Source of the DNA: a virus
Taxonomy: Duplodnaviria; Heunggongvirae; Uroviricota; Caudoviricetes
Direction: 5' to 3' (one strand)
IMG/VR virus record: IMGVR_UViG_2565956726_000008
Length of the DNA stretch: 64,000 bases
Part shown: positions 5,847 to 51,202 of the stretch, piece by piece
Layout: each line of letters begins with the position of its first letter
Numbering within the stretch: the stretch's first letter is position 1
Translations under genes and position numbers: made by a program
Notes under the pieces: generated by a model
Seen by the model: the letters and a program-made list of their open reading frames with translations, nothing else
Told to the model about the DNA's origin: nothing
Databases searched by the model: none

Positions 5847-6533
5847 GTGAATACTATGATCCATGTTCGTACAGGACAATTTGCTGCCGTGGTGAACGGT
5901 AAGCGCTATGAGTTTAATCCTTGCTTTGCTGCGATGGCTAAAATCGGCAACGATAGTGAGCTTGTCGAATATTTCGCACTTATCCACGGCGGCAAATATC
6001 CATCACGATTGCCAGCAGATCCAGACCTCCGCAATCGCATTATGGCGCGGTGTTATGGTGAGATAGTACAAACGTCAATGCGCATCCTGAAATGTTGCTC
6101 AGACGACGAAATAGCCCCGTTATTGGGTGAATGTAGGTCAACTTCTTCCGGCAAGTTACGACTAAAACCCGGACTGATGCCGACCAGTGACGTTATCACG
6201 CTGGCACAACATTGCATGTACCACGGTTTAATCGGTGACGGGCCAGAAGAAGACGCCGGAGAGATCCGGGAAGGGGAATATAAGCCGACTTTTAACGTGC
6301 TGGAATTCGTTTATTCTGCCGTAGCTCACCTGGGATTATCTGAATCAGAAGCGTGGAATATGACAATGACCGGATATAGGGCCGCTGTACGCGCTAAAAC
6401 GCCGCCAGAAGCAAGAAACAAACAAAAACGCCCAAATGTATTGCTGGATAAAAAGGCTTATGACGATGGAATGAATGGTGCTATGGAGATACTAAAAAGA
6501 ATGAAAAATCGCGAGCAAGAAAAAACCCGGTAG
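5847..6533 (+). CDS. tail assembly chaperone-like protein (putative)
   Basis: 228-aa ORF between major tail and tape measure genes; probable real start ATG ~5856. Confidence 0.35.
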   Translation: MNTMIHVRTGQFAAVVNGKRYEFNPCFAAMAKIGNDSELVEYFALIHGGKYPSRLPADPDLRNRIMARCYGEIVQTSMRILKCCSDDEIAPLLGECRSTSSGKLRLKPGLMPTSDVITLAQHCMYHGLIGDGPEEDAGEIREGEYKPTFNVLEFVYSAVAHLGLSESEAWNMTMTGYRAAVRAKTPPEARNKQKRPNVLLDKKAYDDGMNGAMEILKRMKNREQEKTR

Positions 6534-6558
6534 ATCCGGGCGTTTTTGTTAAGTTCGC

Positions 6559-6879
6559 TTATGCTATTTTTTCGTAAAGCACATTCATCTGGGTGCGAAT
6601 CACTGTTAATATATTGATTGCTGCGTTCTTATTAATGCGTTTATTCGCTACTATTTTTGTTTTCCCATCAATAACAACCAGATCTGCGTGCAATACATGG
6701 TTGAAGTTGACAATGTAATAATACTGTTTATCGCCAACATGTTGAACATATGCACCATTTAGATTTCCTTTATACCCACAATCACGCTCTGCGACACCGA
6801 AGTCAAATTCGCGGTTCATCTTGCGATTATATGCTACTTGTTTATGTTCCCATTTTCTCATCCATTCATCGCGTTTCAT
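6559..6879 (-). CDS. hypothetical protein, cargo gene 2 of lipoprotein pair
   Basis: 106-aa minus-strand ORF in AT-rich insert; 9-nt gap after the lipoprotein gene. Confidence 0.5.
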   Translation of the reverse strand: MKRDEWMRKWEHKQVAYNRKMNREFDFGVAERDCGYKGNLNGAYVQHVGDKQYYYIVNFNHVLHADLVVIDGKTKIVANKRINKNAAINILTVIRTQMNVLYEKIA

Positions 6880-6888
6880 GTTTCACCC

Positions 6889-7548
6889 TTAATTCCAGTT
6901 GCAAGCGTTTTTCACTTTGTCGATGTGGTTATAAAGACCATCAATGTTAAACACTGCTTTCTCAATGTCGCCAGCTTCCGGCACTGCTTCAATGATAAAT
7001 TGTTTTTCGTTAACCAGTTTTTTAATCATTGGGATGGCTTTTTTGCCGTCCCATAATCCAAGAGCTTTATAATTAGTTGACCGCCACCACTCAGTAGCTA
7101 CAGCTTTGTGATCGCCGATCCGGTAGTTAATATAAGTAGTGTCCCCAGCGTCAGTTACATGGTTTGACCATGCTACGAACATTTTTGTTTTATTACCCTG
7201 GCAAGCGATTGTTAATACAGGTTTGTTTTCATCCCGTGCTTTCAGTGTAGGGAAAGCATCAAGACTTCCGCTGAAATGTTCTGCTTTCACGAAAAGGAAC
7301 ACGTTTTTTGTGTCCTGCATATCATCTTTTCTTTCGACCACAAGCCACTGTTTACCAGCTTTTTCTTTTGCTAACTGTGCCTCATATGCGGCTTGTTTTG
7401 CTTGTTGTTCTGCAAGCCATTTAGCATTTTTCTCTGCTAATGCTTGTTGTTCTTGAGTGGTCACTATAGGCGCTTTTTCATTATCCTCATTGCAACCAAC
7501 CAGACCCAATACCGCCGCAATCATTGCCACTTTTGCTAACCGTTTCAT
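6889..7548 (-). CDS. outer-membrane lipoprotein (signal peptide, lipobox LVGC, Asn at +2), cargo gene
   Basis: N-terminus MKRLAKVAMIAAVLGLVGC-N; coiled-coil stretch then globular C-terminal domain; opposite strand to tail genes. Confidence 0.6.
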   Translation of the reverse strand: MKRLAKVAMIAAVLGLVGCNEDNEKAPIVTTQEQQALAEKNAKWLAEQQAKQAAYEAQLAKEKAGKQWLVVERKDDMQDTKNVFLFVKAEHFSGSLDAFPTLKARDENKPVLTIACQGNKTKMFVAWSNHVTDAGDTTYINYRIGDHKAVATEWWRSTNYKALGLWDGKKAIPMIKKLVNEKQFIIEAVPEAGDIEKAVFNIDGLYNHIDKVKNACNWN

Positions 7549-7675
7549 AACCCACCACGCTAACTTGATTTACTGACCATTCCCTTTGGCTTCTTTATAC
7601 AAAATGGAGTCGTTGAAGTAAAGCCATTTTGTATAAAATAGATACACAGATCACATTTTTGCATGAGGTTAAATC

Positions 7676-10018
7676 ATGGATACCAGTGTAGGTACAATTT
7701 ATTACGAAGTTGATGCGAAAACTAGTCAACTTCTCGTTGCACAACGACAGGCAGACCAGGCCTTTGGGCGTATAGAGCGCGGCGCAAAACAGGCTGACCG
7801 CCAGGTAAACACCCTGAAAACATCCATCAAGGCACTGACCAGGGTTATCCATTTGCTAATTGCTGCGGAGGCCGTGCGTCAATTCATGGATATGGCGGAG
7901 CAAGCAAAAATGCTTCGCGTAAAAATCAAAATGCTTACGGGCGATGCGGAGTCCGCCGGACGGGTTTTTGATGGCCTGAAAGCAATATCAAAAGAAACAG
8001 GCCAAAGCATGAAGGATACCGGGGATCTGTGGCAAGGCTTAGCTATCTCACTGAAGAACACGTCCGCCACTGAAGGGCAATTGCTTAACCTGGTAGGTAC
8101 GATTCAGAAAATGGGGGCATTAGGCGGCGCGTCAGCGGAACAGATGTCTAACTCAATGCGTCAATTCCGTCAGTCTATCGACGGCGGTGTTCTTCGTGCC
8201 GAAGAATTTAACAGCCTGCTTGAAAATACGCCGACCATCGTACAAACAATGGCCCGCCATATGGGATTATCAATGGGCCAGTTCCGCGCCGAAATGCTGG
8301 ACGGCAAGATCACGGCTGAAAGGATGGTTAACGCAATACAGGCGGCTACGCAGGAAACAAACGATAAGTTTGCTCAGTTGCCGCGCACATCCGGCATGGC
8401 TATCAATGAGCTTAAAGTAGAAATTATGGGCCTTGTTGAGCAGTTGGATGATCTTTTTGGCGTGTCAGATGGCGTTGTTTCAGCTATCGACTTGATCACG
8501 AAAGGCGTTAAAGGGCTTGGCGATGGCGCTAAATTCGCTAAAACCTGCTTCGACACACTCAAAACGGCTGGTAGCGAATTTATCGACATGTTTGATGATG
8601 TGGCTGTTAAGGCTGGAGAGGTGGCAGAGAAGATCATCGCAATGGTGACGCCAATCAAGGCGCTAATGGATGGCTATAAATGGATGAAGGAGGTAGTAGG
8701 AGAGCAAACCGACGAATATAACAGCAACTACGAGAAGAAATACGGGAAGACCGTTGGCAAGGTCATGCAACTACAGGATGATCTGACCGCAGCAATCCAG
8801 GCTACAGAAGAAGCAAGGAAAAATGAACAGAATGCTGCCAATGACGGAGCGATTACCGGATTCGACAAGCCAGTAGACAAGCCGAAAAAACAGAAAAAAG
8901 AGAAGAAATCGGAAGCTGATCGGCTTGGTGACAAAGGTATAAGCGTTTCTGATCAGTACAACAAAGACGCCGCCGCCATGCGCAAAGCGTTGGAGAACGG
9001 CAAGGCCATTGATGCTGCATTTGCCCAGGGTAAAATCACGCTCCTTGAGTACCGCGCCGCGCAAAAAGGGATCGGCAAGGAACTGAAAGAAGAATTAGCA
9101 CAAATTCCGGTAGATGAATTGCGTGATAAATGGTCACAAATAGTAAGCCCGATGGATCAGCTAAAAGGCGAAGTTGACCCCATCCAGCAGGCGCAAAATG
9201 AATGGGCCATCCGTAAGCAAATGCTTATAGACCTGGGCGCTACTGAAGCGCAACAGAAACAGGAATTGTTAGCCTATGAGCAACAGATCCGCGATCTGAA
9301 ATGGGAACAATGGCAGGCGCAAAGCGACACAAACGGCCTTATCGGTGATTGTGTTAATGGCCTTAAAGGCGGAATGAGTAATGCGCTTGTTGGCCTGTTA
9401 AACGGCACTCAATCATTGAGTGATGTTTTTGCTAACTTAGGAAGCAATATACTCGGCAATATCGGTAACAGACTCTCAGACATAGCTGCAAACTGGATAG
9501 CAGATCAGATCATGATGGAGACACAAAGCAAGGCCACGCAAACAAGTACAACAGCAAGCGCGGTAGCAGCTCAGGGAAGCATTGCTGCGGCGGCGGCCCC
9601 AGCAGCGGCGGCAACTGCGGCGTCAACTGGCGGTAGCTGGGCGGCGGCTGGTTCGGCGGCGCTCACTGCGATCATGTCGCTGGCTACGTCAATTTTCGGC
9701 GGCGGTCGCTTTAATGGTGGTAGCGTCATTGGTGGTAATATGTACCGCGTAGGGGAACACAACAGGCCGGAGCTATTCCAGACATCTAACGGCAATCAAT
9801 ATATGATCCCTGGCGAGAACGGCAGAGTTATTCCGGGCCGTGATATTGGCGGCGGTGGCGGTATTAGTATGCCTGTCAGTATCAGCATTCAGACCACGAA
9901 CGGATTCAGCGACGAAGACAGCCGCAGACTTGAATTAACAATGGAACGTGTAGCCATGAAAATGATAACAAGGGAATCTCAAAGACCAGGCGGAATGTTG
10001 CAACCTCGCCGCAAATAA
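7676..10018 (+). CDS. tail tape measure protein (prophage A)
   Basis: 780 aa, alpha-helical, Gly/Ala-rich C-terminal region; position before M. Confidence 0.8.
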   Translation: MDTSVGTIYYEVDAKTSQLLVAQRQADQAFGRIERGAKQADRQVNTLKTSIKALTRVIHLLIAAEAVRQFMDMAEQAKMLRVKIKMLTGDAESAGRVFDGLKAISKETGQSMKDTGDLWQGLAISLKNTSATEGQLLNLVGTIQKMGALGGASAEQMSNSMRQFRQSIDGGVLRAEEFNSLLENTPTIVQTMARHMGLSMGQFRAEMLDGKITAERMVNAIQAATQETNDKFAQLPRTSGMAINELKVEIMGLVEQLDDLFGVSDGVVSAIDLITKGVKGLGDGAKFAKTCFDTLKTAGSEFIDMFDDVAVKAGEVAEKIIAMVTPIKALMDGYKWMKEVVGEQTDEYNSNYEKKYGKTVGKVMQLQDDLTAAIQATEEARKNEQNAANDGAITGFDKPVDKPKKQKKEKKSEADRLGDKGISVSDQYNKDAAAMRKALENGKAIDAAFAQGKITLLEYRAAQKGIGKELKEELAQIPVDELRDKWSQIVSPMDQLKGEVDPIQQAQNEWAIRKQMLIDLGATEAQQKQELLAYEQQIRDLKWEQWQAQSDTNGLIGDCVNGLKGGMSNALVGLLNGTQSLSDVFANLGSNILGNIGNRLSDIAANWIADQIMMETQSKATQTSTTASAVAAQGSIAAAAAPAAAATAASTGGSWAAAGSAALTAIMSLATSIFGGGRFNGGSVIGGNMYRVGEHNRPELFQTSNGNQYMIPGENGRVIPGRDIGGGGGISMPVSISIQTTNGFSDEDSRRLELTMERVAMKMITRESQRPGGMLQPRRK

Positions 10019-10025
10019 ACTAAAT

Positions 10026-10050
10026 CCCGGTGCAATGCCGGGGTTATTTT
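10026..10050 (+). terminator. rho-independent terminator after tape measure gene
   Basis: Hairpin cccgg-tgcaatg-ccggg plus T-run; near-copy of the 3479 hairpin. Confidence 0.5.
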
Positions 10051-10104
10051 TCGTATTTATAAACGACCATTCCGCGCGATATATCCCCTTTCGAATATCT
10101 CGAC

Positions 10105-10359
10105 TCACTTATGAGTGCCTTTCACGCCACATAACTTGTTATAGGCATGGTGCTCAACAATTAACCAAACCTTCAAATCTTCGCTAAACAGCCTCCAATC
10201 AAGATTGATATCCATTTTGTATCCGTAACCGTCGCGTAACTTTTTGGGGTAAACTTCTTTTCTCAGAAAGGCTTTAAGTAATTCCTTACCTTTCTTGATG
10301 ATCCGGTCCTGTGCGTTTTTCTGTGCTTTCAGATTTCTGTCAATCGCTACCAGTTTCAT
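10105..10359 (-). CDS. RelE/ParE-fold toxin-like protein (candidate)
   Basis: 84 aa, basic; C-terminal pattern DWRLF...VWLIVEHHAY resembles RelE/ParE family; second gene of two-gene operon. Confidence 0.4.
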   Translation of the reverse strand: MKLVAIDRNLKAQKNAQDRIIKKGKELLKAFLRKEVYPKKLRDGYGYKMDINLDWRLFSEDLKVWLIVEHHAYNKLCGVKGTHK

Positions 10360-26073: not shown

Positions 26074-27309
26074 CTACGATAACCGCGCATTCAACATGGC
26101 TATCTGTTCGTCGTTCATGTCATCAATCCACATACCGTAAATTTCATACACCATCTGCGCAGTTTCATGCCCCATTTGGCTGGCTATAAATGCCGGGTTC
26201 GCTCCTGCCGTCAACAGCCAGCAGGCAAAAGTATGCCGCGTATGGTACGGATTACGGCGGCGAATACCAGCACGTTTTACTGCTGCATTCCACCTTGCCC
26301 CCAAACTGCTTACCGAGTAATAAGGTTTTTGTTTTCCGTTACACACCCTGGGCATGAAAACAAAATGCAGTTTTTGCTTTTCGGTTCTGCCGTACTCCCG
26401 ATGATAAAAGGTGATTTCGCTTTTGCGATGATGCCCGGTCAGTTTGTATTGCTCCTTCAGTGCTTCAAGAGCAGGCTGCAGTAGTGTTACTGTTCGGATC
26501 CCGGCATTTGTTTTTGGGGGACCGAACATATCAAGTATCGTCAGGTTTCTTCTGACATTCACTATTCCCTTTTCGAGATCCACATCCTCCCACGCCAGAG
26601 CTGCCAGTTCCCCGTGACGAAGTCCTGAGTAAACGGCAAATTTCCACAAGTTCTGGCTCTGTCCTTTTTCACTTTCCATTAATGCATTGAATTCTGTTTT
26701 AGATAACGGATCAGGCTTTATTCTGTTTCGCTGTAATTTTTTTACTCCTTCAAATGGTTTGGTTGATATAAATCCCGACTGATACGCAAAACGCAACAGC
26801 GAACAGAGCAGGGCGATATAGTTATCAACTGTGCGCACGGTTCTTCCTTTTTTGTTGGATCTTGGATTATCCAGGTAAAGCGTTTCTCCATGCAGCAGTT
26901 CATTCCGGTAGTTTAAGATATCGCTATAACGAATATGTGATATCGGGGTACTTTCACAAATTATTATTCTGAGTGTTTTTAATTGTGATTTCGTTTTCTT
27001 CATTGTGTTTGTTGTTAACTCTGTCTCTTTAATTTTTGTCCAGATATCACAAAGCTCTCCGAACGTTTTTATGACTCTCGTTGTCACCATTTTTGCCCCA
27101 GTGCTGGACTGGGGAAAACGTCTTAAATACTCAAATTCACCGGAGTTTATTTCATGAACTATCAGCGCTCTTAAATTTCCGGCCTTTTTAATATTACTGT
27201 TTGTAATCTCCCAGCCTTTTAATGTTTCCCGACATCGTTTTCCTCGAAACATGAACCAGATGCGAATGTATCTACCTCTAATCTCGACACCTGTTGGTAA
27301 TTTAGACAT
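26074..27309 (-). CDS. intR: Rac prophage tyrosine integrase
   Basis: 411 aa; C-terminal R...HxxR...Y catalytic region; adjacent to ttcA as in K-12 Rac. Confidence 0.9.
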   Translation of the reverse strand: MSKLPTGVEIRGRYIRIWFMFRGKRCRETLKGWEITNSNIKKAGNLRALIVHEINSGEFEYLRRFPQSSTGAKMVTTRVIKTFGELCDIWTKIKETELTTNTMKKTKSQLKTLRIIICESTPISHIRYSDILNYRNELLHGETLYLDNPRSNKKGRTVRTVDNYIALLCSLLRFAYQSGFISTKPFEGVKKLQRNRIKPDPLSKTEFNALMESEKGQSQNLWKFAVYSGLRHGELAALAWEDVDLEKGIVNVRRNLTILDMFGPPKTNAGIRTVTLLQPALEALKEQYKLTGHHRKSEITFYHREYGRTEKQKLHFVFMPRVCNGKQKPYYSVSSLGARWNAAVKRAGIRRRNPYHTRHTFACWLLTAGANPAFIASQMGHETAQMVYEIYGMWIDDMNDEQIAMLNARLS

Positions 27310-28057: not shown

Positions 28058-28867
28058 TTATTCCTCTGAATTATCGATTACACTGTATTCCCCGGTTAAT
28101 ACAGAGGAATCTGCAGGATCGATTGTCAGTGGTTCCTTTTCATCCATTGATACTGCACGCTGGATCTCAATTGATACGGGCAGATATTTGAACAGGCGAC
28201 GAATAGCCGTTTTCTTTGCCATTTCTTCCCAGTGAGTTACCCACGGCCCGTTATTACCAGCTTTACTCAGGCTGCGCACCAGCTCAATCTGTTTGCGCGT
28301 CATAACTTCAAACTGAGTACCTCCGTCTTTCAGTCTTGCGACAGCATAGACGTGGGTAACCGGGGCATCTTCGTTTTCTCCCGGGCGGTGTATTAACTTT
28401 TCATCAAGGCCAAATTCGAAGCTAAACTCGTCACCTTCACGGACAACACGGGCTGACAGGCTGGCGATTTGACCAGAACGGCGAGCCAGATCAATCATGC
28501 CGCGATAGCCAATGATTAGCTGAACGTTCTTTTTACCGCTCTTTTCGTTTTTATTACCAAAAGGCAGTAAATATGCATGACCGAGGGCGCTACCTGGCTC
28601 AAGTCCGAGCTGTGAACACTGTACGATCGCACTGACAAAACTCATAGTGTCACAGTTTCCTAACGCCGGAACTTTACGAATTTCTGTAGTGGCGATACGG
28701 ATCATACGTTCAGCCGTCATATGGCGTGGAAGAGCTGCTGCCAGTTGCTCTTTCATTGATGGCTGGTTAATAAAACTAATCACGTCGCTATTTTTAACTG
28801 CTGCTGGTGCACGGTTTCCCTGAGTTTTTTGCAGATCGGCTTTTGCGATTGGTGGTTGCTTAGTCAT
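28058..28867 (-). CDS. recT: recombinase RecT (single-strand annealing protein)
   Basis: 269 aa from MTKQPPIAK; overlaps the recE stop by 8 nt. Confidence 0.9.
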
Positions 28868-31460
28868 TTGCATATTCCTTAGCCCAGCGGGGCAGTGATA
28901 ATGTCTTAATAGCTGGCCATTCATCGGTATTCAGGCAGTCAGACAGGGTTCGCAGATTGCGGTGATATTCCTGTTGACCTGCCAGTTTTGCTTCTTCGCC
29001 CATCATGAAAATTTCAACCGGATAACGTCCGCATTCAATAGTTGTGCTGGCAACCAGAAAAACGAAAGTTGGCTGCACTCCAAACAGTGCTTCATAACCG
29101 TCACTGTAGAATGCATCCTGAACGTGATAGCGGTAGTCGTAATAAGCGGTTTTGAATCGTTGAATATCCGCCGTAGTTTTCACGTCCATGATCCAGTGAA
29201 ATTCAGGGATAATTTTGTCCGGACGGCACCGACACAAAATTCCTGTTTCAGGATCTTCCCAGTAAATTGATGATTCAGCGTGTCCGGCGCTTTCAACAAG
29301 CCATTGCCCCAGCGGCAAAGCCATAACGCTTTGATACATGAGTTCAATTTTCCGGCCTTCTTCCGCAGTGATAACCGTTTTTCCTGTGCTTGCGCATTCC
29401 ATCAGAAACGCTTTCTCTTCTTCTTTTCCGGCGTTTGTACGGCGGTTAAATTCAGGTGCTACGATAAAGCGGTTACTGAATTCTTCCGGTTCAAGTACCC
29501 GGCAGTGGAAAGCAGTTCCTAAATCGAGCGTTTTTGTCTTTGTGGTGTCCACGGGGGCATTTTTACGCCACAAATATAGTGCCGGAGTATCAGCAATGTC
29601 ATCGAGCTGAGACTTACTGATACCGGGACCCGCGTGGTAATTCTCATTCGAAATTCCGTAATAAATACCTGGCTCTATGTCTTCTACGATTACGGGATCT
29701 GCGACTTCGCCAGTTTCATCACTGCAATCGTGATGCGGATCGCTGCCAGCATTCTCATTGTGCGGATGTTCAGCGCCTTCCATTTCCTCCGGATCATTTT
29801 CCTTAGCTTCAACCTGACTCTCTTCATCGAATGTTTCCTGGTATGTTGCGTCGCCCATCACCGCACCACAGTCAGGGCAGTTATCCCCGCCAGTCTGGCC
29901 GCAGGCATTGCAGGCTATTTCCGGTTCCTGTTGCACTACTGGCTCAGGTTGATTCATATCTGGGCTGGTTTTTTCCGTTTCTGGCTGGTTCTGGTACACA
30001 CAATCGCGAGTCTGGATCCCCTTTACCCATTTCGGATCGTTCGGGTCGCTAATTCCGTCAACAAATTCACCACGTGATGCAGCAAGCAATTTATCGGCAT
30101 CGACAGGATTTTTTGATGGAATGTTTTTCCGGGCTTCATGGAGTTCTGCCCGCAGTTCCTGATATTTCGCATCAACAGAATTTACCTGTGACTGAGCATC
30201 CAGCGGCTGCGTGTCCTGATGATGTTCAGTTGCGTCCGGTTCCATTGTTTCAGCCTCTCCCTGTTCAACTGCCGTTGTTCCAGATGGTTGCGGTTTTTCT
30301 TCATCATCCTGTTTTCCTTCTTCTGTTACTCGCTGCGGCATCGGGGCAGAGGAGCGACTGCAGGCAATATCCACGATTTCCGGATCAGGGTTGGCATGAT
30401 CGGTTTCAGTCAGTACTTTGTTCAGATATTCAGTGACGTGCGCGGGGATGACCTCGATCCCAATTGGTGCTTCTTTTACGGACGCAACCACGATGGCGCG
30501 GGAATAATCCAGCCCGCCAGGCATGGTGATGAATTTGTCGCGGAAAACAGAAAAGGGCGGTTTATTTTCAGCGATAATTTCCTCAATGCGTTTAGCGTGT
30601 GCCGGATGAAGGTTATAGATGTCCAGATCCATTGAACGGGCCAGTACGCCAGTGGCTACGTCGCGCGCCAGTGACGTCAGATCGTGTACGAAACCTTCGC
30701 CGCGATCGGTGAGGTTTCCGCCGCCAGCATTAGCACCGGAAGCCGTGCGAGTGATGTGTGAAACACGATTACCCTTCATCCACTCTTTTGTCAGCAGTCC
30801 TCGATCGGTGTAGTCAGCGTTCAGGTATGCTTCGAAAAAAGCAGTTATCAGTCCCAGGTTTGAATTACCAGGATTAGGGAAAACTTTGTCAGTGTCACGA
30901 ACCAGTTTGTGGAGTTCGCGAATTTCCAGCGGGTCGAGCAGGCTGGTTTTGTGGGAAACAGCCAGGGCAGTAACAGCCGGTAGTTCTTCAGCCCGAGCAA
31001 TGTGTAATGCCTGGAGTCCGTCGCGTGAAACGTGCGTTACCGGTTTTTCGCTGCCGTGTTGAGCAAGCCAACGAATGGGCAGTTCCTGGCCAGAAATTGG
31101 GAGTAGCATATTCTCCTCAATCTCAGTCATGTCTTCGCCGTTGACGTTGGTATTGCCTTGATAATGAGCGTTGTCTGGTGCTGCTCCCGGTTTTAGTTCC
31201 CATGTCATGGAGTCTTTGCTGAGTTGATAGCGTTCACTCCAGGTAAAATCGATCTCACCTTCAGCGGGCAGGTCATTAACGACAGGAAAATTCGTGGCAA
31301 CAGCTTTAAAATAGCTGCTCAGTTTTTTACCTGACTTAACGATCAGGTAGTCCAGAGTGGCACAGGTCGATTCAAAATCGTTGCTTGCCCACAGGACGAC
31401 GTCAGGTTCACCGGATGATTTTTTCGCTTTCCGTAACAGGAAGAGTGGTTTTGTGCTCAT
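28860..31460 (-). CDS. recE: exonuclease VIII RecE
   Basis: 866 aa; acidic linker; C-terminal nuclease domain; same length as K-12 RecE. Confidence 0.9.
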
Positions 31461-45186: not shown

Positions 45187-45323
45187 AATCTTAACTACAA
45201 TATGATTCATTTTGATGATTGTTTCATAAGGAACAGTGAAGTAAGATCTAAGAGGAGTTAAATTTTATACAGTATAATCATAATATTGCAGCAAGGTGGT
45301 TATAATTGAAAGAATATTTAGAT

Positions 45324-46781
45324 ATGAATACATCTCATGTAAGAGTTGTTACTCATATGTGTGGGTTCCTGGTTTGGCTCTATAGTCTTTCAATGTTGCC
45401 ACCAATGGTTGTAGCATTGTTTTATAAAGAAAAAAGCCTGTTCGTTTTCTTTATAACTTTCGTTATATTTTTTTGCATTGGTGGCGGAGCGTGGTATACA
45501 ACTAAGAAATCTGGCATTCAATTACGTACCCGTGATGGGTTTATTATAATTGTAATGTTTTGGATTTTGTTTTCTGTTATTAGTGCATTCCCTTTATGGA
45601 TTGACTCAGAACTTAATTTAACGTTCATTGATGCTCTGTTTGAAGGGGTTTCTGGAATAACAACAACAGGAGCAACTGTAATTGATGATGTTAGTTCATT
45701 ACCTCGGGCATATTTGTACTATCGGTCACAGTTAAATTTTATAGGTGGTTTAGGAGTTATTGTTCTGGCGGTTGCTGTATTGCCATTATTGGGTATTGGT
45801 GGTGCAAAGCTTTATCAGTCAGAAATGCCGGGGCCATTTAAGGATGACAAACTCACTCCCCGCCTGGCCGATACGTCACGGACACTGTGGATAACTTATT
45901 CTTTATTAGGTATTGCTTGTATTGTCTGTTATAGACTTGCAGGAATGCCTTTGTTTGATGCTATTTGTCACGGGATTTCCACAGTTTCGCTTGGTGGTTT
46001 CTCAACTCATAGCGAGAGTATCGGATATTTTAATAACTATTTGGTTGAGCTGGTGGCTGGTTCTTTTTCCCTGCTATCGGCTTTCAACTTCACTCTTTGG
46101 TATATTGTTATTAGCAGGAAAACGATAAAACCTTTAATCAGAGATATTGAACTTCGTTTCTTTCTGTTAATAGCCTTAGGGGTGATCATTGTTACCTCTT
46201 TCCAGGTCTGGCATATAGGTATGTATGACTTGCATGGAAGTTTTATTCATTCGTTTTTTCTTGCCAGCTCCATGCTCACTGATAATGGTTTAGCTACGCA
46301 GGATTATGCAAGTTGGCCCACGCACACGATAGTGTTTTTGCTGTTGTCAAGTTTCTTTGGGGGATGTATAGGTTCAACTTGTGGTGGAATTAAGTCACTT
46401 CGATTTCTTATACTTTTCAAACAAAGCAAACACGAGATAAATCAGCTTTCTCATCCCAGAGCGTTGTTGAGTGTAAATGTAGGAGGGAAGATAGTTACAG
46501 ATCGTGTAATGAGGTCTGTATGGAGTTTCTTTTTTCTTTATACTCTCTTCACGGTGTTTTTTATACTGGTGTTAAATGGTATGGGATATGATTTTCTTAC
46601 ATCATTTGCAACAGTGGCTGCATGTATTAATAATATGGGATTAGGTTTTGGGGCTACTGCATCGTCATTCGGAGTGCTTAATGACATTGCAAAATGTTTA
46701 ATGTGCATAGCTATGATTCTTGGTCGCCTTGAAATTTATCCTGTTATTATATTGTTTTCAGGTTTTTTTTGGCGCTCCTAA
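45324..46781 (+). CDS. trkG: potassium uptake protein TrkG
   Basis: 485 aa from MNTSHVRVV; multi-TM; AT-rich gene as in Rac. Confidence 0.9.
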   Translation: MNTSHVRVVTHMCGFLVWLYSLSMLPPMVVALFYKEKSLFVFFITFVIFFCIGGGAWYTTKKSGIQLRTRDGFIIIVMFWILFSVISAFPLWIDSELNLTFIDALFEGVSGITTTGATVIDDVSSLPRAYLYYRSQLNFIGGLGVIVLAVAVLPLLGIGGAKLYQSEMPGPFKDDKLTPRLADTSRTLWITYSLLGIACIVCYRLAGMPLFDAICHGISTVSLGGFSTHSESIGYFNNYLVELVAGSFSLLSAFNFTLWYIVISRKTIKPLIRDIELRFFLLIALGVIIVTSFQVWHIGMYDLHGSFIHSFFLASSMLTDNGLATQDYASWPTHTIVFLLLSSFFGGCIGSTCGGIKSLRFLILFKQSKHEINQLSHPRALLSVNVGGKIVTDRVMRSVWSFFFLYTLFTVFFILVLNGMGYDFLTSFATVAACINNMGLGFGATASSFGVLNDIAKCLMCIAMILGRLEIYPVIILFSGFFWRS

Positions 46782-46918
46782 TATATGGCTGATTTATAAT
46801 TGTGAGTTTAATATTATGTTGACTCACTCATTGATCCAATACCTAACTTTACCAGCAACACCTCCGTCCCCAGTAGCACTGGCTGCTGGGGTGCGTTTTA
46901 TTCATAAAGCAAGGCTGT

Positions 46919-47710
46919 ATGAGCGAGAAATTAAAGATAGTCTATCGCCCATTACAAGAATTGTCACCGTATGCGCACAACGCCAGGACGCACAGTACTG
47001 AGCAGGTGGCACAACTGGTAGAAAGTATTAAGCAATTCGGCTGGACTAATCCGGTGCTGATTGACGAAAAGGGCGAAATTATTGCGGGTCACGGTCGTGT
47101 TATGGCGGCTGAAATGCTCAAAATGGATTCTGTTCCGGTCATTGTTCTGTCTGGCCTGACGGATGAGCAGAAAAAGGCGTACCGCCTGGCAGATAATCGC
47201 CTGCCGATGAATGCTGGCTGGGATGAAGATCTGTTGCGGATGGAGCTGTCGGACCTAATCAATGCTGATTTTGATGTCTCCCTGACAGGCTTCATCCCGA
47301 CAGAAATTGATGAACTGTTGACGGATGTTTTGCCCGGTACAGGAAATGAGGAGGAGCCGTATACGACGAAAATTGATACGCCTGTTTATGAGCCGTCGGG
47401 CGGTAAACCGGATATCAGTGAACTGTACGACGATACGAAAACTCAGGAGCTGATCAGCCGGATACGTTCGGCGTCCCTTGAGCCTGATATTGAGAAATTC
47501 CTCCTGTGTGCGGCAGAACGTCACACGGTGTTTAATTTCAGCAGAATTGCGGACTATTACGCTCACGCCCCCTCTGAAATTCAGTGTTTTTTCGAGGAGT
47601 CGGCGCTGGTGATCATTGATTATCAGCAGGCTATTGAAAATGGATTTGTCCGGATGACGCAGCGCATGGTGGAGATCATGCATGGTGGTGAGGAGGAGGA
47701 ATATGCGTGA
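46919..47710 (+). CDS. ynaK: ParB-like nuclease domain protein (full-length ynaK-like)
   Basis: 263 aa; N-terminal ParB/Srx motif region (IIAGHGRVMAA); K-12 carries a short version. Confidence 0.65.
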   Translation: MSEKLKIVYRPLQELSPYAHNARTHSTEQVAQLVESIKQFGWTNPVLIDEKGEIIAGHGRVMAAEMLKMDSVPVIVLSGLTDEQKKAYRLADNRLPMNAGWDEDLLRMELSDLINADFDVSLTGFIPTEIDELLTDVLPGTGNEEEPYTTKIDTPVYEPSGGKPDISELYDDTKTQELISRIRSASLEPDIEKFLLCAAERHTVFNFSRIADYYAHAPSEIQCFFEESALVIIDYQQAIENGFVRMTQRMVEIMHGGEEEEYA

Positions 47711-48635
47711 TGATTTTTGCGCCTTTATTCTGACTCACGGGCGACCGGACAAAGTTCTGACTTACCGGACGTTGCGTCGTGCTGGCTATACCGGGAAAAT
47801 TTTTATCGTTGTTGATGATGAAGATAAGACACGGCATCAGTACATGGCTGAATTTGGTGAACAGGTGCTGGTGTTTTCCAAAGCCGATATCGCCAGTCGT
47901 TTTGACGAAGCCGATAATTTCTGTGACCGCCGCTCAATTTTTTACGCCCGTAATGCCTGTTTCGACCTGGCAAAACTGGTCGGGTGTAAATACTTCATTC
48001 AGCTCGATGATGATTATCACGAGTTCCAGTTTCGGGTGGATCGCAACTATGACCAGGCCTATTTTCCGATAAGGAAACTGGATGCGATCCTTTCTGAAAT
48101 GCTGGCGTACTACGAATCAATACCTGCTCTTTCCATCGCTATGTCGCAGGGCGGGGATTTTCTTGGTGACAATGGCGGCCATGCTTCGTGGGTGAAACGC
48201 AAGGCAATGAACAGCTTTATCTGTTCGGTTGATCGACCGTTCTCATTCATGGGGCGCATTAACGAGGATGTGAATACGTACACGAATCTCGGTCGCTGTG
48301 GTGAATTGTTTATGACGATCGGTGCTGTCCAGTTAGGGCAGAAACAGACGCAGAAAAACAGCGGCGGAATGACCGAGCTGTATCTGGATTCCGGAACCTA
48401 CGTTAAAAGTTTTTACTCCGTCATGTATGCGCCGTCGTGCGTAAAAATCTCACTGATGGGTGCCAGCCATAAACGCATTCACCATCAGGTCACCTGGAAC
48501 AACGCTGCAGTAAAAATCCTTCACGAAAAATACAGGAAGAAGACACCCTGCATATCAATGGGGGTGACAAATGATTCCGTATTCGAAAGTCGAGTCTCTG
48601 GCAGCGTGCCGGATGACTGCACAACAAATCGCTGA
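47703..48635 (+). CDS. hypothetical protein with DxD motif (possible GT-A-like nucleotide-sugar transferase; ydaY-like)
   Basis: 310 aa from MRDDFCAF; IFIVVDDEDK and QLDDDYHEF acidic motifs; overlaps ynaK end. Confidence 0.35.
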   Translation: MRDDFCAFILTHGRPDKVLTYRTLRRAGYTGKIFIVVDDEDKTRHQYMAEFGEQVLVFSKADIASRFDEADNFCDRRSIFYARNACFDLAKLVGCKYFIQLDDDYHEFQFRVDRNYDQAYFPIRKLDAILSEMLAYYESIPALSIAMSQGGDFLGDNGGHASWVKRKAMNSFICSVDRPFSFMGRINEDVNTYTNLGRCGELFMTIGAVQLGQKQTQKNSGGMTELYLDSGTYVKSFYSVMYAPSCVKISLMGASHKRIHHQVTWNNAAVKILHEKYRKKTPCISMGVTNDSVFESRVSGSVPDDCTTNR

Positions 48636-48822
48636 CGTTCTGGATGTTGATCTGAACCGACTGAAAGAAAATCGGGAAGCAATGACAGATTTTTATGCGG
48701 CCATCCGTAAGGGCAGAGCGAAAGGTGAAGCCGAGTTACGAGCGGCATTGTTTAAGCTTGCCAGAAAAGGGGATGCCTTTGCTCTGCGCGAACTACTCAG
48801 GGTGGATAAAAATCAGGACTAA
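48571..48822 (+). CDS. small HTH DNA-binding protein (packaging-region)
   Basis: 83-aa ORF overlapping the previous gene end. Confidence 0.3.
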   Translation: MIPYSKVESLAACRMTAQQIADVLDVDLNRLKENREAMTDFYAAIRKGRAKGEAELRAALFKLARKGDAFALRELLRVDKNQD

Positions 48823-48825
48823 CTG

Positions 48826-49920
48826 ATGAGCAGACCGGACTGGGGGGCGTTGCAGCAGGAGTATATTGCTGAATACACCCGCTCCGGTATATCTCCGGTG
48901 GCATGGTGTGAAGCAAGGGGACTGAATTACGCAACAGCCCGTCGTTACATCAAAAAAACTCCGAAAAATGCGCAGACAGAAATGTGCAAAACTGCGCAAA
49001 AAAGTGCGCAGAAAAAATCTGCGCAGACTGCACAAAAGCGGAACGAAAAATCTCAGGAAAAAAAGCCAGTATTCGATGCGGGCCTGAATGAGGGCGACGC
49101 GGAGGAATTTTCGTTCTGTCCCGATGAATTCGGCATTTCTGACCAGCAGGCTAAGTTTGCGATGCTTGTTGCTCAGGGTAAAAAGCCGACAGAGGCGTAC
49201 CGACTAGCCGGTTATGAGGGGCAAGGTGCGACAGCTAATAGCAACGCCAGTCGTATGCTTAGAAATGCCAGGGTTTTTCGCGCTATCAGCTACTTCCGCA
49301 ATCAGTACCAGAAACGCTATACCGCAGACCTGGATTTACTAGTGAGTCAGTTGATGGCCATTGTCCTGGCCGACCCCAATCAGCTTGCACAATTTCGCCG
49401 TGTTAACTGCCGTTATTGCTGGGGCGAGAATCATCTCTACCAGTGGCGCGATATAGCAGAATTCGACAAGGCAGCGGCGCAGGCTTCCAGAGATGGCAAA
49501 CCCGAACCGGAATATGGAGGCCTCGGCTTTGTTGATAACGCCATACCCAATCCGGACTGCCCGAAGTGCTGCGGTGAGGGAACGGGACAGCTTTATATGG
49601 CTGATACCACTCTGCTTGATGGGGATGCGCGGCAATTATATGCAGGGGCAAAATTCGGAAAATTCGGCGTTGAGATCCTGCTGGAGGATAAGGCTGCCGC
49701 CCGGCGTGAATTGTTGCGTTTGCTTTCTGCTGGCGGGGCTTTATGTGCAGATAAGCGGCTACAGGAACTGGAAATTGAACGGCGCAGAATGGAAAACCAG
49801 AAGCTGCGCAAAGAGATCGAAACGGTGGAAGATAATGAACATCCCCAGCCTGTGGCGATCAATATTAATGTGGTTGATGCCAGAGTAAGGAGTGATGAAG
49901 ATGATCTCTCCGACGCTTAA
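48826..49920 (+). CDS. terminase small subunit-like protein (N-terminal HTH, Cys-rich zinc-ribbon-like region)
   Basis: 364 aa; immediately upstream of and overlapping the large terminase gene; CxxC...CPKCC motifs. Confidence 0.45.
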   Translation: MSRPDWGALQQEYIAEYTRSGISPVAWCEARGLNYATARRYIKKTPKNAQTEMCKTAQKSAQKKSAQTAQKRNEKSQEKKPVFDAGLNEGDAEEFSFCPDEFGISDQQAKFAMLVAQGKKPTEAYRLAGYEGQGATANSNASRMLRNARVFRAISYFRNQYQKRYTADLDLLVSQLMAIVLADPNQLAQFRRVNCRYCWGENHLYQWRDIAEFDKAAAQASRDGKPEPEYGGLGFVDNAIPNPDCPKCCGEGTGQLYMADTTLLDGDARQLYAGAKFGKFGVEILLEDKAAARRELLRLLSAGGALCADKRLQELEIERRRMENQKLRKEIETVEDNEHPQPVAININVVDARVRSDEDDLSDA

Positions 49921-51202
49921 TGTGCCTCAGGCGCGATTTCTTTCAATGCCCCATAAATTTAAAGCCTATATTGCTGGTTTTGGCTCGGGCAAAACATGGG
50001 TTGGGTGTGGCGGCATATGCAAGGGGATTTGGGAGCATCCAGGTATAAATCAGGGATATTTTGCGCCAACGTATCCCCAAATTCGCGATATTTTTTACCC
50101 TACAGTGGAAGAAGTTGCTGCTGACTGGGGATTGAACGTAAAAATTAATGAGGGAAATAAAGAGGTTCACTTTTATTACGGACGCCAGTATCGGGGAACC
50201 ACTATCTGCAGATCGATGGAGAAGCCACAAACGATCGTCGGTTTCAAAATTGGTAATGCGTTGGTGGATGAACTGGACATTTTGCCGAAGGAAAAAGCCA
50301 GAACGGCGTGGCGCAAGATAATTGCACGTATGCGTTATAAGATTGATGGACTTCGCAACGGTATTGACGTTACAACCACGCCGGAAGGATTCAAATTTGT
50401 CTACGAGCAGTTTGTTAAAGCCGTGCGTGAAAAAACAGAGCTGGCCTCACTGTATGGTCTGGTGCAGGCATCTACTTTCGATAATGAAAAGAACCTGCCA
50501 GCAGATTACATTCCTTCGCTTCTTGAATCATACCCTCCAGAGCTGATTAAAGCCTATCTTCGAGGACAGTTTACTAACCTGACAAGTGGTACTGTTTACC
50601 ATCAGTTTGACCGGAAACTGAATAATTGCGAAGAAGTGGAGCAGCCAGGGGAGCCGATTTATATTGGGATGGATTTTAACGTTGGAAAGATGGCGGGAAT
50701 CGTCCATGTGCTGCGTTTGGGGCTTCCATGTGCGGTAACTGAAATCATCAATGCCTACGATACGCCGGATATGATCCGCATCATTAAAGAACGCTTCTGG
50801 CTGTATGATGGGAATGATTACCGGAAAGTGAGGGAAATTTATATTTATCCAGATGCTTCCGGGGATTCCAGAAAATCAAGTAACGCAAGTACGACGGATA
50901 TAGCCCAGCTTAAGCAGGCTGGTTTTAACGTTGTGGTGAACAGCTCGAACCCGCCAGTAAAAGATCGCGTTAACTCAATGAATGCAATGTTCTGCAATGC
51001 CAATGGTGAGCGTCGCTATAAAGTTAATGTGAAGCGTTGCCCGTTATATGCCGAATCTCTGGAGCAACAGGTCTGGGATGAGAAGGGGGAGCCTGATAAA
51101 AAATCTGGCAATGATCACCCGAATGATGCCGGAGGTTATTTCATCGTTAAGCAATTCCCTATTGTCAAACCGACCGGAAGAGTCACATCACTTCGGATTT
51201 AA
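49892..51202 (+). CDS. terminase large subunit
   Basis: 436 aa; Walker A GFGSGKT; position before portal. Confidence 0.8.
   Translation: MMKMISPTLNVPQARFLSMPHKFKAYIAGFGSGKTWVGCGGICKGIWEHPGINQGYFAPTYPQIRDIFYPTVEEVAADWGLNVKINEGNKEVHFYYGRQYRGTTICRSMEKPQTIVGFKIGNALVDELDILPKEKARTAWRKIIARMRYKIDGLRNGIDVTTTPEGFKFVYEQFVKAVREKTELASLYGLVQASTFDNEKNLPADYIPSLLESYPPELIKAYLRGQFTNLTSGTVYHQFDRKLNNCEEVEQPGEPIYIGMDFNVGKMAGIVHVLRLGLPCAVTEIINAYDTPDMIRIIKERFWLYDGNDYRKVREIYIYPDASGDSRKSSNASTTDIAQLKQAGFNVVVNSSNPPVKDRVNSMNAMFCNANGERRYKVNVKRCPLYAESLEQQVWDEKGEPDKKSGNDHPNDAGGYFIVKQFPIVKPTGRVTSLRI

Follow-up and report, generated by a model that had tools for sequence, protein, structure and literature searches.

A ParB-like protein and a GT-A glycosyltransferase encoded side by side in a Rac prophage: a conserved viral pair with a possible role in DNA glycosylation

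Two overlapping genes between trkG and the terminase

The stretch of DNA analysed here (the window: 64,000 nucleotides of a Caudoviricetes genome, IMG/VR record IMGVR_UViG_2565956726_000008) contains a Rac prophage integrated at ttcA, and in this prophage, between trkG and the terminase genes, lie the two overlapping genes that are the subject of this report: the first encodes a ParB-like protein and the second a glycosyltransferase (GT). An initial annotation, made from the letters alone, had drawn attention to both reading frames, their overlap and their position, all of which are borne out. The ParB-like gene (46919-47710; this and every feature given below between 46868 and 51202 lies on the plus strand) encodes 263 amino acids (aa), matches PF02195 and phrog_620 (E 1e-90), and is the full-length form of ynaK, of which Escherichia coli K-12 MG1655 carries, as had also been remarked, only an 87-aa remnant joined directly to ydaY. 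The GT gene (47703-48635) would give 317 aa if its open reading frame (ORF) were read from the ATG at 47682; the functional ATG at 47703, which is also the start in the PGAP annotation, gives 310 aa and overlaps the stop of the ParB-like gene within ATGCGTGA. Because the Shine-Dalgarno sequence of the GT gene (GAGGAGGAGG, 47690-47699) lies inside the ParB coding sequence, and because start and stop overlap, the pair is translationally coupled. Both genes are under purifying selection: among enterobacterial prophages dN/dS is 0.11 for the ParB-like partner and 0.096 for the GT, compared to 0.15 for terS.

Upstream, a terminator-like hairpin with a T-run (46868-46901; a 10-bp stem with 7 GC pairs, then TGCGTTTTAT, found by a consensus scan) separates the trkG moron from the ParB-like gene. 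Judged from its sequence it would stop trkG transcripts in a lysogen, and since it lies between trkG and the pair, the antiterminated late operon is probably the only source of transcripts of the pair, which would be silent in lysogens. The moron itself has a G+C content of 0.39, as against 0.49-0.51 in its flanks, and the strong hairpin (46868-46891) would insulate the late genes from it. Of 5426 complete E. coli genomes, 867 (~16%) cover at least 80% of the 2.2-kb stretch of the module, as do 10 phage records. Enterotoxigenic E. coli H10407 has the same module in a lambda-like prophage; the module therefore moves with packaging and head genes.

The second protein of the pair is, as its motifs had led the initial annotation to propose, a GT-A nucleotide-sugar transferase with a GT-A fold and a DxD motif. 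Its match to the Pfam family PF20691 (TAGT, TET-associated glycosyltransferase) scores 122.1 bits (cut-off 27.5; E 3.8e-35) and spans 4-205 of the 205 profile positions; phrog_842 is matched at E 7e-104. The AlphaFold2 (AF2) model is confident over residues 1-150 (local confidence score, pLDDT, of 85-96 in the N-terminal half) and poor beyond, with a shallow alignment. Searched with Foldseek, it finds SpsA, K4CP (chondroitin polymerase), ColGalT1 and glycogenin (E about 1e-4) and also SunS/ThuS in the PDB, and phage 'TAGT domain' proteins in BFVD (E 2e-18); a profile search against PDB sequences gave no match. Four motifs are invariant in 15 diverse homologs (60-82% identity): D38-D-E-D41, D102-D-D-Y105, N187-E-D-V and G221-G-M-T. 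The first falls in IFIVVDDEDK (residues 33-42; 47799-47828), which by alignment and model (AF2 strand 32-38) comprises the end of beta-2 and the first acidic motif of the GT-A nucleotide-binding site; the second falls in QLDDDYHEF (residues 100-108; 48000-48026; AF2 strand 97-102), the DxD motif that binds metal and diphosphate. It was these two strings that had first suggested a transferase, and both are present, with D38, D41 and D102-D104 unchanged throughout the homologs. The remaining two motifs (48261-48374), aligned in a region that AF2 models with low confidence, are candidate catalytic-base and acceptor-site residues.

RefSeq, PGAP and UniRef call it a 'GREB1-related protein' or hypothetical. 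The T6 protein ggt belongs to the same family and PHROG (PF20691, 35.8 bits; phrog_842, E 5e-78), a kinship that rests on this common membership, since hhalign found no significant alignment of the GT profile with T6 ggt. An automatic label, 'beta-glucosyl-HMC-alpha-glucosyltransferase', is unjustified: no hydroxymethylase and no alpha- or beta-GT is annotated alongside, and the hhalign match is missing.

The ParB-like partner is built of several parts. The AF2 model divides it into a nucleotide-binding domain (NBD; residues 1-93, pLDDT 70-92), helices (103-134), a disordered stretch (136-169, pLDDT <50) and a helical C-terminal domain (CTD; 170-255), with low confidence and a shallow alignment in the CTD half. 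The ParB/Srx-type NBD (residues 1-95; 46919-47203) reaches 29.3 bits against PF02195 (ParB_N; cut-off 26.3); a profile search of the PDB returns Noc, ParB and Spo0J at E 3e-5, with GhGR and GERR aligned, and Foldseek finds Noc, ParB-CTP, PadC, KorB, Srx and SerK. Among 65 homologs N21 is kept in 63, R/K23 in 55, G57 in 64, R60 in 56 and N93 in 64; the pair D92-N93 is conserved as well. The motifs of reference in this comparison were those for NTP binding and hydrolysis, Box I (Q/N-x-R), Box II (GERR) and Box III (ENxxR). Structure prediction thus recovers the two folds that had been anticipated, GT-A in one protein and ParB/Srx in the other. The 'nuclease' or 'nicking' activity that the initial annotation attached to the latter is not supported: 'nuclease' is a legacy name of the fold, and the protein is acidic (isoelectric point, pI, 4.6) and matches no helix-turn-helix (HTH) family in a Pfam profile search. 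Neither is it a partition protein. Its score against the NCBIfam model parB_part is 38 bits, under the cut-off of 58, and no ParA is annotated in the Rac or the H10407 prophage, nor is there a parS-type partner; a partition or nuclease role is rejected because HTH, ParA and parS are lacking and the protein is acidic.

The affinities of the N-terminal part lie elsewhere. Residues 3-141 match phrog_498, 'DNA methyltransferase', at E 9e-51, and tblastn with residues 1-140 retrieves 430 phage records; among 45 of these, picked at even spacing, about half fall under genes annotated as DNA methyltransferases, with 31-56% identity over the whole length. By sequence similarity, then, the first ~140 aa of the partner – the NBD and the acidic helical segment behind it (residues 96-135; 47204-47323; net charge -9) – have their nearest relatives in the N-terminal modules of phage DNA methyltransferases. 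The partner itself has no methyltransferase domain detectable with Pfam.

Across 64 full-length partners the best-conserved region is not the ParB fold: it is a short linear motif together with the domain of ~90 aa that follows it. The motif, Y148-[TS]149-x-K-I-x-x-P155-x-Y157-E-P (47360-47395), lies inside the predicted disordered linker (residues 136-169; 47324-47425; net charge -5). Y148, P155 and Y157 occur in all 65 homologs, and T or S at position 149 in 64. The CTD (residues 170-255; 47426-47683; net charge -6), delimited by conservation and the AF2 model, has the consensus FL..AA.RH..FNY..IAEYYAH....Q.LME.SALVIIDF..AI..G; across the related loci the conserved CTD, with the motif in front of it, measures ~110 aa. 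No Pfam family covers the CTD, a PDB profile search yields chance-level matches only, and phrog_620 is its sole PHROG. A search of 1.84 billion representatives recovered it in 1186 clusters (50%-cluster representatives). In the best 150 of these 1186 it ends proteins of ~250-300 aa or fills proteins of 128-200 aa, some perhaps fragments, and none of the best-scoring 150 is a fusion of CTD and GT. Longer proteins that might pass for ParB-GT fusions have the look of chimeras in which an assembly error or a frameshift has joined on tail or other genes.

The CTD also stands alone. In the 191-kb Vibrio phage pv27 the gene before the GT encodes a 139-aa protein consisting of motif and CTD, and stand-alone CTD proteins of 130-140 aa occur where the ParB NBD is absent. 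The motif is retained in CTD-only proteins and in the archaeal virus HHTV-2; the distant partner in Porphyromonas has only the YEP portion left. The constant partner of this GT clade is the CTD with its motif, and not the ParB fold on which the initial annotation had fixed.

Pairing, distribution and gene context

The closeness of the association is evident from scans made in both directions. Starting from the GT, with one genome per species, 80 loci were collected (45-100% GT identity) from Proteobacteria, Bacteroidota, Firmicutes, Verrucomicrobiota, Kiritimatiellia, Acidobacteriota, Planctomycetota, Saccharibacteria and others. In 78 of them the GT gene is immediately preceded, on its own strand and usually with an overlap, by a ParB-like ORF; in the other two the GT is at a contig edge, and the partner is thus upstream in every one of the 78 testable loci. 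Starting from the CTD, at least 591 IMG/VR contigs encode the domain, and a TAGT follows on the same strand in 80 of the 80 loci kept. In a combined re-scan a CTD gene precedes the GT at 158 of 160 loci, the two exceptions being contig edges, and the NBD is attached to the CTD in 143 of the CTD-GT loci (~90%). One locus (L065) has two GT paralogs, each behind its own CTD gene. The association of the two genes, first remarked at a single locus, is thus general: adjacency in 158 of 160 loci, together with the translational coupling in the window, supports the view that partner and GT form a functional pair, and this pair is a fixed module. In the locus with two paralogs the order (6460-10156) is a CTD-like protein (113 aa, 'FYYEP'), GT1 (269 aa), a CTD protein (132 aa), GT2 (301 aa) and a beta clamp, and a GIY-YIG homing endonuclease apparently splits the PolA gene upstream.

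Isolated viruses carry the pair too. In Lactobacillus phage c5 it comprises the first two genes past the cos site; it is found in phage phi jlb1 and Nocardia phage NTR1, in Porphyromonas phages, where GT identity is only 27%, and in the haloarchaeal virus HHTV-2. Several phages of L. delbrueckii (phiLdb, Ld17, LL-Ku and Ld25A were compared with c5, whose GT is intact) have a split or fragmentary GT, which suggests that phages can do without the module in the laboratory or the dairy.

The genes around the pair fall into two settings. Upstream, no gene family recurs among 80 loci. Downstream, positions +1 and +2 of 70 loci hold 139 genes, among which a Pfam search finds Terminase_6N 17 times, Terminase_3 12 times, GpA 7 times, the T7 type 4 times and TerL 3 times – at least five large-terminase families – and small terminases as well; NBD-bearing pairs usually lie directly upstream of the terminase, in cos and pac phages both. 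The NBD-less pairs with enough surrounding sequence sit among replication genes. Three (L028, L031, L065) have the order PolA-(GT)-CTD-GT-beta clamp, a fourth (L071) reads methyltransferase-CTD-GT-clamp, another (L024) has a Toprim/DnaB primase-helicase upstream, a further one (L011) has DUF1376 nearby, and in pv27 the order is primase...CTD-GT-helicase. All four beta-clamp loci are without an NBD, and a clamp is found in none of the 143 loci with one.

Some loci include further enzymes. In five viral IMG/VR contigs (L147, L149, L151, L156 and L161) a protein that combines a His-phosphatase with a cytidylyltransferase-like part lies between partner and GT, and presumably makes a special NDP-activated (nucleoside diphosphate-activated) donor. 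This inserted protein has ~320 aa; its phosphatase part resembles alpha-ribazole phosphatase and its other part cytidylyl- or adenylyltransferases, and in one of the contigs (L147, 5572-7254) it is fused in frame to the ParB-CTD protein (560 aa). A UDP-galactopyranose mutase is found at one locus (L064) and a second TAGT at three (L058, L077 and L028). In a metagenome-assembled genome of Hyphomonadaceae (L060, 3581-5275) a TAGT is fused to a methyltransferase dependent on S-adenosylmethionine (SAM), 564 aa in all, and is followed by a second TAGT, an arrangement that suggests a methylated di-glycan product. Finally, eight Clostridia-type loci (L057, L058, L059, L072, L074, L080, L159 and L165) have a 329-aa radical SAM protein directly after the GT; it could be assigned to no specific subfamily, and sugar tailoring, base chemistry and peptide chemistry are all possible roles.

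What the pair may act on

A central issue is the acceptor of the sugar. We put at about even the chance that the pair is a two-part, late-expressed DNA glycosyltransferase. A DNA substrate is favoured because of the family to which the GT belongs (that of T6 ggt), the partner (a methyltransferase-type module), precedent (the ParB-assisted dioxygenases discussed below) and context (terminase and replication genes). The basic 310-aa GT (median pI of the homologs 8.8) would be the catalytic subunit, probably with an NDP-sugar donor and an inverting, GT2-like mechanism, and the acidic 263-aa protein its obligatory partner, with CTD and motif docking on or activating the GT; the opposite charges of the two proteins are in keeping with such a complex. 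The ParB NBD could hold or open the complex on duplex DNA, in the manner of the thymine-dioxygenase activators and of ParB-methyltransferase modules. Because the pair is probably read from the late operon with the terminase, progeny DNA would be modified after replication and before or during packaging, and would then be protected from nucleases in the next host; in lineages without the NBD the pair would be expressed with the replisome instead of with the packaging genes. We infer the physical complex, the DNA acceptor, the timing and the protective role alike. The initial annotation had suggested a DNA-modification or anti-restriction module acting on packaged DNA: DNA modification survives as the best-supported reading, backed by the same four lines, anti-restriction is a putative role, and action on packaged DNA is unlikely, late co-expression with the terminase pointing to an earlier moment.

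The closest characterised enzyme by family is ggt of T2 and T6, which in T6 adds a second glucose onto alpha-glucosyl-hydroxymethylcytosine (PMC13216743). Like the window GT it is phage-encoded and belongs to the same Pfam family and PHROG, the GT-A fold and DxD motif having been found here for the window GT. The T6 neighbourhood has a dCMP hydroxymethylase and an alpha- or beta-GT, none of which is annotated in the Rac or the H10407 prophage; conversely, it has no gene for a CTD partner, which the window clade always has. The same study (PMC13216743, NAR 2026) finds solitary TAGTs, their function undefined, in 288 of 753 phages; it is to this 'solitary' set that the window pair belongs. It also reports that the alpha-GT of T4 co-purifies with the gp45 clamp. 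A DNA glycosyltransferase tied to a clamp recalls the four NBD-less loci in which a beta-clamp gene directly follows the GT; the T4 enzyme differs in having a GT-B fold and in acting on hydroxymethylcytosine made before replication, and the clamp link here comes from gene order alone.

A second precedent concerns the partner. One subclass of the thymine dioxygenases of phages is active on double-stranded DNA only with the help of a cognate ParB-like protein (5mYOX176 and ParB176; O'Toole et al., PNAS 2026, PMC13229309). Partners of the ParB176 type consist of an NBD, a short helical segment, a disordered linker of ~50 aa and a CTD, with no DNA-binding domain; mutations in the NTP site have little effect, no stable complex was trapped, and the gene clusters often adjoin terminase genes (19% of contigs) (PMC13229309). 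The window partner is predicted to have the same stand-alone architecture, next to its own enzyme. The enzymes differ – an Fe(II)/2-oxoglutarate dioxygenase there, a GT-A glycosyltransferase here – and the window CTD forms a highly conserved, apparently distinct family that also occurs free of the NBD.

ParB-DNA methyltransferase fusions (a ParB N-domain and an N6_N4 methyltransferase; phrog_498), likewise phage and prophage genes, are homologous to the window partner over its N-terminal 140 aa; in these the catalytic domain is covalently attached, whereas the window module ends in linker motif and CTD, with the enzyme separate and translationally coupled. A survey of ParB-fold fusions that includes phage methyltransferases makes no mention of glycosyltransferases (Kaljevic et al., PNAS 2025, PMC12704722). 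Glycosylation of 5-hydroxymethylcytosine (5hmC) by phage GT-A enzymes was demonstrated by Pyle et al. (bioRxiv 2023 / Cell Rep 2024), who listed ParB and terminase among the neighbours, set aside the ~65% of GT contigs without 5mYOX or ThyS, and brought up the possibility that the GTs of prophages hypermodify invading genomes. Our full-text literature search yielded no publication that describes a ParB-TAGT pair in the absence of 5mYOX. The bare association of ParB with TAGT is not claimed as new here: Iyer et al. reportedly defined the TAGT family in 2013 and proposed that ParB directs modification enzymes, and may already show such neighbourhoods.

Several observations weigh against DNA as the target, and the foremost is the hydroxyl group. 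To our knowledge phage DNA is glycosylated only on hydroxymethylated bases (in T-even phages and with TET/5mYOX) or hydroxylated ones (in arabinosyl-hydroxycytosine phages), and all characterised members of the TAGT family, so far as we know, glycosylate a hydroxyl on 5hmC, on 5-hydroxymethyluracil (5hmU) or on a DNA-borne sugar; canonical DNA has no free hydroxyl except at its ends. Neither the near-identical Rac prophage nor the lambdoid prophage of H10407 has an annotated TET/5mYOX, dCMP or dUMP hydroxymethylase or C5-methyltransferase. The complete 31.8-kb genome of phage c5 has no TET/5mYOX or hydroxymethylase, a Pfam search of its unknown ORFs gave no match to such an enzyme, and it leaves no room for an enzyme that could supply the hydroxyl. 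The absent acceptor hydroxyl is a real difficulty for a DNA substrate. As no TET/JBP-type dioxygenase, hydroxymethylase or C5-methyltransferase was found in Rac, the H10407 prophage or c5, the name 'TET-associated' is unfit for this clade.

Other points on the same side of the balance are less severe. In the literature searched, no modified base is reported for any phage with the pair. The partner is acidic and without a DNA-binding domain, and among its 65 homologs the catalytic Glu of GERR (Box II) is replaced by His (39) or Asn (25), so that NTP binding by the NBD is plausible from its conserved residues and hydrolysis doubtful. The C-terminal halves of both proteins are modelled with low confidence. 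The mutual exclusion of clamp and NBD comes from four loci, three of them of one lineage and perhaps two lineages overall, and is a lead rather than a statistic. The eukaryotic relative GREB1 has been reported as a protein O-GlcNAc transferase.

If the acceptor is nonetheless DNA, a sharper and more tentative proposal can be made, to which we give clearly less credence than to a DNA glycosyltransferase in general: that the GT glycosylates canonical, non-hydroxymethylated DNA, at an exocyclic amine or ring nitrogen of a normal base or at the backbone, which would be a chemistry so far undescribed for DNA, with motif and CTD as obligatory activator and with NBD and beta clamp as interchangeable devices for retention on DNA, the ParB form acting before packaging and the clamp form during replication.

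The most serious competitor, though we consider it unlikely, is that the GT glycosylates protein. The most specific form makes the partner itself the acceptor, at Y148-[TS]149...Y157, much as in glycogenin or glycocins, with a product that acts in packaging, replication or counter-defence; a looser form has virion or terminase proteins modified, and mycobacteriophages do glycosylate virion proteins with GTs encoded near structural genes. An invariant, hydroxyl-bearing motif, set in a disordered linker whose sequence varies elsewhere, is what a modified site might look like, and CTD-only proteins and an archaeal virus keep it too; its invariance speaks for a binding partner encoded by the phage, and besides the gene for the CTD no gene but that of the GT is constant. 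No DNA acceptor is apparent, the Foldseek matches include the self- or peptide-glycosylating glycogenin and SunS/ThuS, though as generic GT-A matches, and GREB1 is reported to work on protein. A conserved peptide beside a docking domain is, however, equally expected of an activator or tether, and in Porphyromonas only its YEP remains. The N-terminal module of the partner is one used by DNA methyltransferases, the NBD-less pairs adjoin PolA, beta-clamp, primase and helicase genes and not structural genes, those phage enzymes of the family that have been characterised work on DNA, and the GT is basic, as expected of an enzyme of nucleic acids.

It is improbable that the pair acts on nucleic acid that is already hydroxylated, be it the 5hmC, 5hmU or glucosyl-hydroxymethylcytosine DNA of superinfecting phages, the 2'-OH of RNA, modified tRNA bases or DNA ends. 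Such a substrate would suit the known chemistry of the family, O-glycosylation of a hydroxyl (T6 ggt puts sugar on sugar), as well as the idea of Pyle et al. on invading genomes and the presence of prophages with the module in 16% of complete E. coli genomes. But the late operon behind the terminator-like hairpin is probably silent in lysogens, and the pair occurs at the cos end of c5, whose genome has neither an integrase nor a CI-type repressor annotated, as well as in large Vibrio phages; phages with cohesive ends need those ends free, and hosts as different as Haloarcula, Lactobacillus and Bacteroides make a common foreign substrate unlikely.

We give very little weight to the remaining alternative, in which the ParB-like protein is a packaging accessory (a pac or cos binder, or terminase helper) or a partition or nuclease protein and the GT an unrelated passenger. 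A place directly upstream of terS and terL is common, and legacy annotations read 'ParB-like nuclease' or 'partition protein', but the linkage of CTD and GT in 158 of 160 loci, its spread over at least five unrelated TerL families in cos and pac phages alike, and the NBD-less pairs in replication modules away from the terminase all speak otherwise. The N-domain has the ParB/Srx fold, with the GxxR and N motifs kept, in common with partition ParB, Noc and KorB, which are CTP-dependent DNA clamps; unlike these the partner is acidic, has lost the catalytic Glu and comes without HTH, ParA or parS-type partner. A role in wall teichoic acid or surface glycans is ruled out by a host range from E. coli to Haloarcula.

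The analysis places one 'solitary' phage GT-A enzyme in a plain E. coli prophage of the Rac type and gives it a two-part anatomy; the module is uncharacterised yet very widespread, a variant both of phage DNA glycosyltransferases and of ParB-assisted DNA-modifying enzymes. Should the acceptor prove to be DNA, a common prophage family would bear an undescribed DNA modification, with consequences for restriction evasion, for host range in phage therapy and for sequencing artefacts, and the ParB fold would have a second role open to experiment, that of a helper to DNA-modifying enzymes; a pair able to put sugar on unmodified DNA would also make a useful labelling tool. Should the acceptor be the partner protein, the pair would represent a new viral system of protein glycosylation, conserved from archaeal to bacterial viruses.

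Surrounding genes of the window

The terminase genes begin at the very end of the GT gene. A small terS-like ORF, which starts at 48571 or 48613 and ends at 48822 (83 aa, or 69 aa according to PGAP), matches phrog_309, 'terminase small subunit' (E 8e-23), and is followed by terS proper (48826-49920; 364 aa, Terminase_2), so that two terS-like genes stand in tandem; homologs of the small ORF elsewhere are stand-alone small terminases of 120-200 aa. The last ~22 codons of the GT gene overlap this ORF, an extension confined to the E. coli lineage: outside it GT homologs end near residue 288. The large terminase subunit (49892-51202) is in the same operon, directly downstream of the pair, with the portal gene next. 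On the other side of the pair are trkG (45306-46781) and, upstream of it, the lysis genes (~43.9 to 45.2 kb), and, further upstream, recE (28860-31460) and the integrase gene (26074-27309).

The window holds a second, unrelated prophage, whose late region (capsid, tape measure, tail tip fiber and head spike fiber) occupies positions 1-21700, upstream of zntB, dbpA and ttcA. At least 80% of this region is covered in only 10 of the 5426 complete E. coli genomes; in strain TUM14771 the place of the second prophage is taken by ordinary genes of the chromosome (abg, fnr, ogt and others).

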